DNA of 64,000 bases from an uncultured Oscillospiraceae bacterium (GTDB taxonomy: Bacteria > Bacillota > Clostridia > Oscillospirales > Oscillospiraceae). The notes beneath the pieces were generated by a model. That model did no database searches, had not been told where the DNA came from, and saw only the letters and a list, made by a program, of their open reading frames with translations. Shown here in pieces: positions 28,426 to 30,850 of this stretch; position 1 is the first letter of the stretch; each line of letters opens with the position of its first letter. A program made the position numbers and the translations under genes. The DNA is taken from NCBI GenBank assembly GCA_944385475.1, contig CALWXJ010000003.1:290-64289 (forward strand), in the 5' to 3' direction.

Positions 28426-28441
28426 TCTCTTTTCTTCCTTT

Positions 28442-28473
28442 GCCGGACGGTCAAAAACCGTCCGGCGTTTTTT
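28442..28473 (+). terminator. Terminator of the threonine aldolase gene
   Basis: GCCGGACGGT-CAAAA-ACCGTCCGGC followed by a T tract. Confidence 0.8.
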
Positions 28474-28486
28474 CGCTTTTTGAGTA

Positions 28487-28556
28487 GAACAAAAATTCGA
28501 TTTTTCCCTTGACAAGAACGCTTGTTCGAGTTAAAGTATAGACAGAACAACAGTTC
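28487..28556 (+). promoter_or_regulatory. SOS promoter: three Firmicute LexA boxes over a sigmaA promoter
   Basis: GAACaaaaATTC 28487-98, GAACgcttGTTC 28516-27 and GAACaacaGTTC 28545-56, all followed by GA and spaced 29 bp apart; TTGACA 28509-14, N17, TAAAGT 28532-37. Confidence 0.9.
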
Positions 28557-28573
28557 GATTCGGAGGGATATGA

Positions 28574-28696
28574 ATGAATATTTGGATGTTTCTTTTTGTT
28601 CTGGTGGGTGTTGCGTTTACCACCTCTCAGCTATTTCGCCTGGTGGACCTGATTGAACGTCCCGCTCGCCCCCGGCGGCGGACCGCACAGCGCTGA
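28574..28696 (+). CDS. 40-aa single-TM small protein, first gene of the SOS operon (not in ORF track)
   Basis: GGAGG RBS 7 nt upstream; MNIWMFLFVLVGVAFTTSQLFRLVDLIERPARPRRRTAQR*; ends 12 nt before the radical SAM gene. Confidence 0.7.
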   Translation: MNIWMFLFVLVGVAFTTSQLFRLVDLIERPARPRRRTAQR

Positions 28697-28708
28697 TGGG
28701 GCCGTCCC

Positions 28709-29965
28709 ATGGATGTACTGGAGAAGCTGACGATCCTGACAGATGCTGCCAAATATGATGCCGCATGCACCTCCAGTGGGGCCAGCCGCCCCGCAAAGGC
28801 AGGCTATGTGGGCAATACCACTTCCACAGTAAGCGGCTGCTGCCACAGTTTTTCCGCAGATGGCCGCTGTATTTCCCTCTTAAAAGTCCTGATGACAAAT
28901 TTCTGCGTGTACGACTGTAAGTACTGCGTCAATCGCCGCAGCAATGATACCCGACGTACGATGTTCACGCCCCGAGAACTGTCAGAGCTGACACTTCAGT
29001 TTTACCGAAGGAATTACATTGAAGGACTGTTTCTCTCTTCCGGTGTCCTGCGCAGCCCTGATTACACCATGGAGCAGATGATCAAAACACTGCGCCTTTT
29101 GCGAGAGGAGTATCGTTTTAATGGATACATCCATGCCAAGGCGATTCCCGGCTCTTCTCCGGAGCTGATAGAACAGCTGGGGCTTTTGGCAGATCGGCTG
29201 AGCGTCAATATCGAGCTTCCCTCTGAGGCAGGGCTGCGCTCCCTGGCCCCGGATAAAACAAAGGGCGCCATTCTGGCACCTATGAGACAGATCACGCAGC
29301 GAAATCTCCAGGCGAGGGAAGAACTGATGAAATACCGGCACGCTCCCCGGTTCGCTCCGGCGGGGCAAAGCACGCAACTCATTGTGGGTGCCACGGCGGA
29401 TTCCGATCTCCACATTCTGCGGCTGACCCAGGGGCTGTACGACCGATATCGTCTCAAACGGGTATTTTACTCAGCCTATGTGCCGGTGGTGGAGCATGCG
29501 CTCCTGCCTGCCCGGGATGTGAAACCTCCTCTGCTCCGGGAACACCGCCTGTACCAGGCTGACTGGCTACTTCGTTTTTACGGCTTCCGGGCCGAGGAAC
29601 TCTTTGGCCCGCAGCAGGAAAATTTTGATCTCCGTCTGGATCCCAAATGCGGCTGGGCCATCACCCATCCGGAGTTCTTCCCGGTAGAGGTGAATACGGC
29701 GGACTACGAAATGCTGCTGCGGGTGCCGGGCATCGGCGTGACCTCCGCCCGGCGGATCCTCCGGGCCCGGCGCAGCGGCGCTTTGCGGATGGAGGAGCTG
29801 AAAAAGTTAGGGGTCGTCATGAAGCGGGCGCAATATTTTTTGACTGCCTCCGGCCGTATGACCCAGGGGCTGCGCTTTTCCCGGGAAAGCCTTCTCTCCG
29901 GTCTCATTGCCGCAGAAAATGCCTCTTTGCCGCAAGCGGAAGGTGTGCAGCTATCTTTATTCTGA
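28709..29965 (+). CDS. Putative DNA modification/repair radical SAM protein (TIGR03916-type)
   Basis: AKYDAACTSSG, CHSFSADGRCISLLK, CVYDCKYC (CxxxCxxC), REHRLYQADWLLRFYGF, HhH motif LLRVPGIG. Confidence 0.93.
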   Translation: MDVLEKLTILTDAAKYDAACTSSGASRPAKAGYVGNTTSTVSGCCHSFSADGRCISLLKVLMTNFCVYDCKYCVNRRSNDTRRTMFTPRELSELTLQFYRRNYIEGLFLSSGVLRSPDYTMEQMIKTLRLLREEYRFNGYIHAKAIPGSSPELIEQLGLLADRLSVNIELPSEAGLRSLAPDKTKGAILAPMRQITQRNLQAREELMKYRHAPRFAPAGQSTQLIVGATADSDLHILRLTQGLYDRYRLKRVFYSAYVPVVEHALLPARDVKPPLLREHRLYQADWLLRFYGFRAEELFGPQQENFDLRLDPKCGWAITHPEFFPVEVNTADYEMLLRVPGIGVTSARRILRARRSGALRMEELKKLGVVMKRAQYFLTASGRMTQGLRFSRESLLSGLIAAENASLPQAEGVQLSLF

Positions 29966-29992
29966 ATCAGGTTTTGACAGGAAAACAGGCAA

Positions 29993-30850
29993 ATGAAGGA
30001 AATCACCTATTGCTATGACGGAAGTTTTGACGGATTCCTCTGTTGTATTTTTGAAAGCTATGTCCGAAAAGAGATCCCCACCGCGATTTTCTGCGATGGG
30101 GATCCCTTTCCTGCACTTTTTCCCTCTTGCTTTATTGAGACAAACGCGCATCACGCACGGCGCGTGTTCTGTAAAGTAAAATACCTTTCCCCTTATGCCG
30201 GCAACATCCTTCAGCGGGCCTTCCTCACCTGCATGCCGGAAAAAGAAATTTTTCTGTACCGTCTGGTGGAAAGGCTTCTGCGGGAGGGCCCTTCCTTCCT
30301 GCGCCGCCAAACAGACAACACCCTCTACCCCCTTTTGACTGCCATCCGGCATCTGCAAAACGAAGCGCATCTTTTGAAAGGATTCCTGCGCTTTTCGGAC
30401 TTGAACGGTGTTTTGGGAAGTGAGATCCAGCCCAAAAATCAGGTCTTACCCCTTCTGCAAGGACATTTTTGCGCCCGATATCACCAAGAGCGTTTCTTCA
30501 TTTATGACCGTACACATCACCAGGCCCTTTTCCACGTTCCCGGAAAAAGCGTCCTTCAGCCTCTGTCCTTTTTTGAAATGGCACCCCCAGATTCCCAGGA
30601 GGCGCACTATCGCCTCCTTTGGAAGCGTTTTTTTGACACAGTGGCCATCCGGGAGCGGGAAAACCCCGTCTGTCAGCGCACGCATCTGCCCAAACGATAC
30701 CGGGGCACCATGACGGAATTTCAAGAGGCCACAGAATTCAAATCTCCAGGCTCTCCCGCAGCCGTGCCAGCCCCCGGCGTTCCAGGCGGGATATCTGCAC
30801 CTGAGAGACTTTTAGGATCCGAGCCGTCTGTTCCTGGGTCATCCCCTTGA
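29993..30850 (+). CDS. TIGR03915/DUF4130 putative DNA repair partner protein
   Basis: YDGSFDGFLCCIF, EAHLLKGFLRF, HFCARY, IYD, LWKRFF..IRERENP..HLPKRY. Confidence 0.9.
   Translation: MKEITYCYDGSFDGFLCCIFESYVRKEIPTAIFCDGDPFPALFPSCFIETNAHHARRVFCKVKYLSPYAGNILQRAFLTCMPEKEIFLYRLVERLLREGPSFLRRQTDNTLYPLLTAIRHLQNEAHLLKGFLRFSDLNGVLGSEIQPKNQVLPLLQGHFCARYHQERFFIYDRTHHQALFHVPGKSVLQPLSFFEMAPPDSQEAHYRLLWKRFFDTVAIRERENPVCQRTHLPKRYRGTMTEFQEATEFKSPGSPAAVPAPGVPGGISAPERLLGSEPSVPGSSP

Follow-up and report, generated by a model that had tools for sequence, protein, structure and literature searches.

A phage-related membrane peptide gene at the head of a putative LexA-controlled radical-SAM operon in Oscillospiraceae

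Does the short open reading frame (ORF) that stands first in a putative SOS operon of an uncultured Oscillospiraceae bacterium encode a genuine membrane peptide, and how is such a peptide connected with the two enzymes that are encoded directly after it? We have addressed this question in a stretch of 64,000 nucleotides (hereafter the window; assembly GCA_944385475.1, contig CALWXJ010000003.1, positions 290 to 64,289), where an original prediction, made from the letters of the window, had placed a 40-codon ORF behind a triple LexA operator and ahead of a radical S-adenosylmethionine (SAM) enzyme gene and its partner. Our comparative analysis indicates that the locus is very probably a LexA-repressed operon of three genes, i.e. 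the peptide, TIGR03916 and DUF4130, in which the peptide gene was inserted later ahead of an ancestral enzyme pair and the translation of the enzyme became coupled to that of the peptide. The structural elements of the operon are the following:

28487-28498: LexA (Cheo-type) box 1, GAACAAAAATTC, just upstream of the -35 element, with one mismatch in its arms
28509-28537, forward strand: sigma-70-type promoter located by promoter search, consisting of TTGACA (28509-28514), 17 nucleotides and TAAAGT (28532-28537)
28516-28527: LexA box 2, GAACGCTTGTTC, within the promoter spacer, with perfect GAAC/GTTC palindrome arms; 18.8 bits against a position weight matrix
28545-28556: LexA box 3, GAACAACAGTTC, just downstream of the -10 element, around the inferred transcription start, with perfect GAAC/GTTC arms; 17.9 bits against the same matrix
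28562-28566, forward strand: Shine-Dalgarno sequence GGAGG of the peptide gene, 7 nucleotides before the ATG at 28574
28574-28696, forward strand: gene of a 40-residue single-pass membrane peptide, a conserved ORF with a predicted helix at residues 3-28, the motif F-R-x-[IV]-D-x-I-E-R-P and an arginine-rich tail
28709-29965, forward strand: gene of the TIGR03916 radical-SAM/helix-hairpin-helix (HhH) enzyme, 648 bits (cut-off 343.5), with Radical_SAM and HHH_3 matches
29993-30850, forward strand: gene of the TIGR03915/DUF4130 partner, 194 bits (cut-off 112), with PF13566 at 144.7 bits

The first step is to establish whether the 40-codon ORF is a gene. The radical-SAM gene has been located in 33 of 36 genomes of the genus, and the DNA upstream of it has been read in 32 species; the genomes compared here are related, so that counts and p-values overstate independence. 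An intact peptide ORF, preceded by a GGAGG-type site, lies upstream of the TIGR03916 gene in all 32 species, with a consensus that starts with M-T-G-W-T-F-F-F, contains L-T-A-Q-L-F-R-x-I-D-x-I-E-R-P and continues into the arginine-rich tail. Within the gap-free core of 30 codons, the column entropies at codon positions 1, 2 and 3 are 0.68, 0.38 and 1.27, and the median pairwise ratio of nonsynonymous to synonymous substitution rates (dN/dS) is 0.18, versus 1.0 and 2.3 in the other two frames, which hold stops in 32 and 19 of the sequences. A chance ORF or a wrong frame has been rejected on these three grounds, and an alternative ATG at 28570, which would open another frame of 28 residues, has been rejected because it is not conserved in the relatives. 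Judging by this pattern of constraint, the 40-codon ORF is a real gene; the original prediction had named loss of conservation or frameshifts in relatives as one way in which it could fail, and it has come through this check.

With a profile built from these 32 peptides, the gene turns up in 109 of the genus's 121 genomes; among the 59 of high quality, 55 have it. Two genomes that have no radical-SAM gene (G004 and G023) gave no match, while a third (G021) has a phage-type copy of the peptide only. One subclade carries a longer form of 58-62 residues, the 3' end of which overlaps the start of the radical-SAM gene by 22 nucleotides; the part of the extension that does not overlap is under purifying selection (ratio of nonsynonymous to synonymous polymorphism, pN/pS, 0.39). 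The arginine-rich segment keeps its composition and evolves faster (pN/pS 0.5-1.0).

The peptide had been described as uncalled, which does not hold: the exact 40-residue sequence is already present in an NCBI-derived protein collection, and homologues exist in RefSeq (e.g. WP_274531944.1 from Oscillibacter ruminantium and WP_325227666.1 from Dysosmobacter sp.) under the name "hypothetical protein". Among 5.8 billion proteins searched by profile there were 509 matches, which bear the same name in Oscillibacter and Dysosmobacter. The peptide belongs to no family of Pfam, NCBIfam or PHROG, with nothing significant found in NCBIfam or PHROGs; the ESM Atlas gave only unnamed clusters, below 0.9, and tblastn of the peptide against deposited phage genomes gave no match. 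Since no entry exists in Pfam, NCBIfam or PHROG, the family could be defined as one.

What kind of product does the gene encode? AlphaFold2, supplied with the alignment of 32 sequences, predicts one continuous helix over residues 3-28, followed by an unstructured tail after Pro30, with a mean predicted local distance difference test (pLDDT) of 94, 97, 82 and 57 in successive blocks of ten residues. The hydropathy maximum spans residues 1-21. In 32 of 32 sequences the net charge on the C-terminal side is between +2 and +8, charged residues are absent from the N-terminal stub, and because the positive charge is only C-terminal, the positive-inside rule places the N-terminus outside and the tail in the cytoplasm. 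The peptide would thus consist of an outside stub of three residues, about 18 membrane-spanning residues, one of them an invariant glycine, a charged juxtamembrane turn (F-R-x-x-D-x-I-E-R-P) and a disordered, arginine-rich cytoplasmic tail; the invariant or nearly invariant positions are G12, F21, R22, D25, I27, E28 and P30.

The second step is concerned with the control of the operon. The three boxes, of the form GAAC-N4-RTTC, start exactly 29 bp apart and are the only matches to GAACNNNNRTTC in the 64-kb window by pattern search, while the promoter of the operon is the sole spot in the 1.73-Mb assembly where at least two GAACNNNNRTTC sites occur together; TTGACA-17-TAAAGT is the only sigma-70-like match between 28000 and 31500. 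The Firmicute LexA (Cheo) operator is the palindrome CGAAC-N4-GTTCG overlapping a promoter, and all three boxes overlap or flank the -35 and -10 elements. In the relatives, both promoter elements are conserved, box 2 is kept in nearly all and box 3 is conserved as well, and a box at the offset of box 1 is found in 12 of 37 peptide-bearing promoters, other genera included. Of 69 loci, 65 have between one and three boxes ahead of the operon (background 0.058 per 330 nucleotides), and across the family the box density before orthologous operons is about 20-40 times the background. Comparative genomics has reported LexA control of COG4277 (TIGR03916) with COG1573/DUF4130, and has described this enzyme pair, in several phyla, as forming a putative SOS operon (PMC8565304; PMC3765255).

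Upstream, the operon is bounded by the following element, a predicted terminator that insulates it from the preceding gene:

28441 to 28467 or 28477, forward strand: strong intrinsic terminator of the upstream pyridoxal-phosphate (PLP) enzyme gene, with an 11-bp stem of which 8 pairs are GC, followed by a T run

A weight matrix built from 84 boxes of the orthologous promoters has been used to scan this genome. Operators of the same type are present at core SOS genes of the lineage as well as at the orthologous promoters. Further top matches of the matrix fall in AT-rich stretches before three genes or gene strings. The first (G000:C28:5098) is a strong LexA-type box inside a TTTACA-17-TATAAT promoter of a YspA/SLOG-family gene, which is followed by an HTH_3 gene; the second (G000:C19:60454, 19.1 bits) is located about 50 nucleotides before DUF1385, which is followed on the same strand by prmC and recA; the third (G000:C38:289), also strong, lies about 110 nucleotides before a CI/LexA-like gene with HTH_3 and Peptidase_S24 domains. 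The SOS regulon that is predicted for this organism seems small and atypical.

The original prediction read the operators as part of a tightly repressed module. It is the case that peptide-bearing promoters have more boxes, with a mean of 2.35 per promoter (12 of 37 have three) versus 1.31 in promoters without the peptide, a contrast that is suggestive only, because the genomes are kin. The history of the promoter calls for a correction. Eight other families of the order and about 24 further genera of the family have been compared; in them the radical-SAM gene directly follows a LexA-boxed promoter, with the boxes 26-87 nucleotides before its start and no small ORF ahead of the gene in any of these operons. 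Since LexA-boxed operons without the peptide occur across the family, the multi-box promoter predates the peptide, and since promoter and LexA control are ancestral, they did not arise to restrain it.

Four other genera, outside this one, also have the peptide ahead of the radical-SAM gene. In a quick maximum-likelihood tree of 69 radical-SAM proteins, in which the presence or absence of the peptide has been labelled by hand, all peptide-bearing operons fall in a single clade of 42 rows (37 with the peptide and five without), and the peptide is found in none of the 27 rows outside it. The simplest reading of this distribution is one gain of the peptide and a few losses. On these comparative grounds, the peptide is a clade-specific insertion into an ancestral LexA-boxed operon, and most Oscillospiraceae operons do not have it. 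One order-level relative (L031; G052:C46) departs from the usual arrangement: its radical-SAM gene is located 21 nucleotides after a gene that ends like an S24 LexA/CI-type peptidase, with no LexA box seen upstream of the radical-SAM gene, which makes a repressor-enzyme operon possible there.

The insertion has left a trace in the ribosome-binding site of the enzyme gene. The mean duplex energy with the anti-Shine-Dalgarno sequence before the radical-SAM ATG is -2.9 kcal/mol in operons with the peptide (n=37) and -8.8 kcal/mol in operons without it (n=32; Mann-Whitney p ~1e-10, with kinship ignored). The radical-SAM ATG either follows the stop codon of the peptide at a distance of 0-12 nucleotides or shares bases with it (TGATG), and in the long form the stop is found 22 nucleotides inside the gene; here, the ATG follows 12 nucleotides past the stop and has no Shine-Dalgarno sequence of its own. 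The loss of the Shine-Dalgarno sequence, together with the tight spacing of stop and ATG, argues that the radical-SAM gene is translated by ribosomes that have finished the peptide; most likely, the translation of the enzyme is coupled to that of the peptide by termination-reinitiation.

Could the peptide then be a purely cis-acting translated leader, which loads ribosomes onto the radical-SAM gene and has no role as a product? The loss of the Shine-Dalgarno sequence and the tight stop-start spacing in 37 of 37 operons speak for such a leader. The amino-acid sequence itself is strongly constrained (dN/dS 0.18, with G12, F21, R22 and I27 invariant), and phage operons retain the same sequence upstream of unrelated genes; a constrained sequence means that the peptide is more than a translated leader, and we consider this explanation most improbable. 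A leader RNA element or a riboswitch has been rejected, as there is no Rfam match above threshold and the fold is not unusual.

Extra, weaker matches to the peptide profile occur in 40 of the 121 genomes of the genus; ten of these loci have been fetched, and all are clear homologues of 29-38 residues with the same helix, the F-R-x-I-D-x-I-E motif and a strong GGAGG-type site. Per genome, the phage-type homologues have E values of 1e-9 to 1e-15. When 1.84 billion cluster representatives (clusters at 50% identity) were searched exhaustively by profile, 184 clusters were found at E ≤ 0.001 and 39 at E ≤ 1e-10; many of the peptides in these clusters have 29-32 residues and end in ...I-E-R-G, with no arginine-rich tail.

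In two of the elements, the gene calls reveal the layout typical of a temperate element: one strand carries an integrase, then a CI-type repressor with HTH_3 and S24 domains, and on the other strand a cro-like gene and an HTH_3 regulator (phrog_6499) come before the peptide. Next follows, in some cases behind a 63-residue ORF, the HTH_36 replication initiator (phrog_270), with a DnaB-type helicase and ParA/ParB after it. The order regulator-peptide-initiator occurs in 15 of 19 copies outside the operon, with a DnaB-type helicase after most, and is kept where the flanking proteins are only about 30% identical; S24 CI-type repressors adjoin at least two of the peptide-carrying elements, and LexA boxes at the phage-type copies do not exceed the background. 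A degenerate DNA pattern for the peptide motif, searched in IMG/VR, matched five viral contigs, all five of which translate to full members of the peptide family; one of the contigs has terminase and portal genes, and another has tape-measure and tail genes. Two phage-like elements (L095:12656-14906 and L103:10322-11113) have an integrase and ParA/ParB beside the replication module, and the peptide-carrying phage-like elements may persist as plasmid-like episomes.

Since homologues exist without any radical-SAM gene, the peptide is not a dedicated part of radical-SAM chemistry. The original prediction had tied it to an unknown repair chemistry; this does not agree with a clade-restricted insertion that has relatives in phage operons devoid of a radical-SAM gene. 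For the same reason we have rejected the precursor of a peptide that is synthesised ribosomally and modified post-translationally (RiPP), with a radical-SAM maturase: in RiPP systems the peptide is always paired with its maturase, which has a peptide-recognition or SPASM domain, while here many homologues lie in phage operons without a radical-SAM gene, and the enzyme is equipped with a DNA-binding HhH domain and a clamp-type tail.

The enzyme pair itself is as the original prediction had it, with both proteins well above the family cut-offs. The TIGR03916 translation contains C-V-Y-D-C-K-Y-C, i.e. the CxxxCxxC cluster motif of its family, and the TIGR03915 gene adjoins it; the chemistry of the TIGR03916/DUF4130 pair is uncharacterised. 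A complex between DUF4130 and the radical-SAM protein has been predicted (bioRxiv 10.64898/2026.08.19.745780). The TIGR03916 protein ends in Q-L-S-L-F (29948-29965), the consensus of beta-sliding-clamp binding motifs; a motif of this type is located at the C-terminus, or no more than about ten residues from it, in nearly all homologues from the family, and is not found in the more distant, order-level TIGR03916 homologues. This tail suggests that the radical-SAM enzyme is recruited by the sliding clamp and thus already has a route to DNA. There is no uracil-DNA glycosylase (UDG) gene in the operon, as had been noted; two generic family-4 UDG-like genes occur elsewhere in the genome, both under the TIGR03914 cut-off. 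Downstream, the DUF4130 gene and the convergent sigF overlap tail to tail by 113 nucleotides (30738-30850), with no terminator between them; the DUF4130 family model stops about 40 residues short of the stop codon. The same neighbourhood and the same overlap with sigF are found in most of 30 loci of the genus.

Given that the peptide directly precedes, and is coupled to, a DNA-binding protein both in the host operon and in the phages, it could act as a membrane tether: the helix would serve as an anchor, and the juxtamembrane motif and the arginine-rich tail would recruit the protein that is encoded next (in the host, the radical-SAM/DUF4130 complex; in phages, the replication initiator), so that repair or replication would occur at the membrane. 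The membrane proteins p1 and p16.7 of phage phi29 are a precedent for membrane-sited replication. The persistence of the regulator-peptide-initiator order at about 30% flanking identity agrees with a tether, as do the purifying selection on the long-form extension into the start of the radical-SAM gene and the ability that an arginine-rich tail could have to bind DNA or acidic lipid. Five points speak against it: a single cytoplasmic motif of 8-10 residues would need two unrelated partners, many phage copies stop right past the motif at 29-30 residues, the enzyme already bears its own docking tail, most of the family has the same operon without the peptide, and among billions of proteins there is only one peptide-radical-SAM fusion, a singleton with a frameshift. 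A stable fusion of the Rosetta-stone type has been rejected on that last ground, the other "long" matches being gene calls that are over-extended through the promoter. We regard the tether as rather unlikely, and a bolder version, in which the peptide common to phage and host would be both an obligatory translational gatekeeper of a clamp-docking enzyme and a shared DNA-membrane anchor of virus and cell, as somewhat less likely still.

Our preferred explanation combines the operon history with a tentative function. In an ancestor of the Oscillibacter/Dysosmobacter clade, a small ORF from a family shared with temperate phages very probably became placed behind the promoter and ahead of the radical-SAM gene; the inserted ORF assumed the strong ribosome-binding site while the radical-SAM gene lost its own, so that the latter is now most likely translated by reinitiation after the peptide. 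Upon DNA damage, RecA-stimulated cleavage of LexA would clear up to three operators from the promoter, and the peptide and the enzymes would be produced together. As to the function, the peptide might be an autonomous, damage-induced membrane brake on septal or envelope growth, a proposal by analogy that we hold with reserve: it would act through helix-helix contact with a division protein, in the manner of SidA, SosA and YneA, and the phage copies, presumably made upon induction behind S24 repressors, would brake the host early after induction. Phages also gain from an early arrest of division. The peptide shares with the SOS membrane division inhibitors a LexA-boxed promoter, from which induction is inferred, and a single predicted helix. 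Small integral membrane proteins are widely used in SOS responses to block division at a late stage (PMC13396833).

Several observations weigh against this explanation, some of them against the regulation and the history, others against the function. A lexA gene was not found in this assembly, which is 86% complete. Its neighbour in the relatives, secG, is likewise missing, which makes an assembly gap probable; lexA scores above the curated cut-off in five of five near-complete genomes of the genus, with a GAAC-N4-GTTT/C box upstream of it in each of these five relatives. Nor does a LexA box lie directly upstream of recA. Direct control of recA by a box of its own has been rejected, the nearest box being the one ahead of DUF1385-prmC-recA, 2.1 kb upstream; recA is perhaps under SOS control only as the third gene of this string. 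The support at the relevant forks of the radical-SAM tree is weak, and the phage and host forms of the peptide occur in the same few genera, a distribution that is compatible with exchange in either direction. On the side of function, the peptide has no similarity to YneA, SosA, SidA, ChiZ or any Pfam, NCBIfam or PHROG family; it is devoid of the extracellular domain on which YneA and SosA depend, and its topology is predicted to be the reverse of theirs. It is tightly linked, often by translational coupling, to the phage replication initiator, and is coupled to a DNA enzyme in the host, so that a role in DNA transactions fits these linkages as well as a role in division. Finally, one would not usually expect a potent division inhibitor to be produced in amounts equal to or greater than those of a repair enzyme. 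The resemblance to the SOS division inhibitors is an analogy only.

Two further functions have been weighed against the membrane brake. The peptide could be a membrane-damaging toxin, of the TisB/DinQ or the phage host-takeover type, oligomers of which would lower the membrane potential and arrest growth; its size, its hydrophobic helix and its LexA control agree with this, and so does the larger number of operators on peptide-bearing promoters. Type I systems use an antisense promoter, a known RNA family or an unusual mRNA fold, and the locus has no promoter-like site on the minus strand, no Rfam match above threshold and a fold z-score of 0.54. The charged residues are only C-terminal, so that a charge zipper in the style of TisB is impossible; moreover, the peptide would be co-translated with radical-SAM chemistry enzymes that need an energised cell, and phages would poison their own host as replication begins. 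We therefore find a toxin decidedly unlikely. Less probable again is a membrane factor of superinfection exclusion or of another anti-phage kind, produced upon damage as a signal of prophage induction nearby: phage relatives of the peptide do exist, and small early membrane proteins can block incoming phage DNA, but no defence genes adjoin the operon (with no PADLOC-type context examined), and genes of this kind usually belong to the lysogeny module and are expressed in the lysogen rather than from an early lytic operon.

The enzyme pair and its LexA control are already known; what is new is the peptide cistron, the predicted dependence of the enzyme on the peptide for its translation, and the presence of the family in phage early operons. 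We have found no paper on the peptide in the literature on DUF4130/LexA, TIGR03916, COG4277 and Oscillibacter/LexA, and we know of no SOS-induced small membrane protein described for the Oscillospiraceae, a major group of gut anaerobes. The peptide family is a concrete candidate for such a protein, with cultured hosts available in Oscillibacter and Dysosmobacter, and a micro-protein common to virus and cell that is placed under two different damage-sensing repressors. As the radical-SAM gene has lost its own ribosome site, genetic work on TIGR03916/DUF4130 in this clade must reckon with the peptide, whose induction, translation, topology and function are all read from sequence.

One of the closest known systems is the LexA-regulated operon of COG4277 with DUF4130 and/or the COG1573 family-4 UDG, which has the same two enzymes and a LexA operator on its promoter. 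The operon described here differs from it in its extra first cistron, i.e. the membrane peptide, and in the predicted dependence of the enzyme on that cistron for its translation; it also has no UDG domain and up to three operators. A second system for comparison is SidA of Caulobacter crescentus, an SOS-induced division inhibitor of 29 residues in the inner membrane; proteins of this kind act by contacting FtsW or FtsN with their helices (PMC13396833; PMC4211646). Like the present peptide, SidA is LexA-controlled and very small, consists of about one hydrophobic helix and has no extracellular domain; the two share no sequence similarity, the sidA gene stands alone and does not lead a repair operon, and the function of the peptide is proposed by analogy. 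We know of no phage relatives of SidA.

YneA of B. subtilis, SosA of S. aureus and ChiZ of M. tuberculosis are likewise SOS-induced, single-pass membrane proteins of Gram-positive bacteria, and yneA is also under multiple LexA boxes. The yneA gene is divergent from lexA, a position that is held in the Oscillibacter-type genus by a secG-like, not a yneA-like, gene in the five relatives. In proteins of the YneA type, an N-terminal transmembrane segment is followed by a C-terminal effector portion outside the cell (LysM in YneA and ChiZ), on which the activity of YneA depends (PMC13396833), whereas the present peptide has almost nothing outside, and its arginine-rich tail is predicted to be cytoplasmic. 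TisB and DinQ of E. coli are hydrophobic peptides of 27-29 residues with LexA-boxed promoters; they are monocistronic, with long structured leaders and antisense RNA control. The peptide resembles them in its LexA-boxed promoter and in its small, hydrophobic product, and their antisense and leader features are not found here. True homologues, as identified by profile, are the early-operon peptides of Oscillospiraceae temperate phages, which have the same helix and the F-R-x-I-D-x-I-E motif, and which differ from the host peptide in that they mostly have 29-32 residues, with no arginine-rich tail, and are located behind CI-type S24 repressors instead of LexA boxes.

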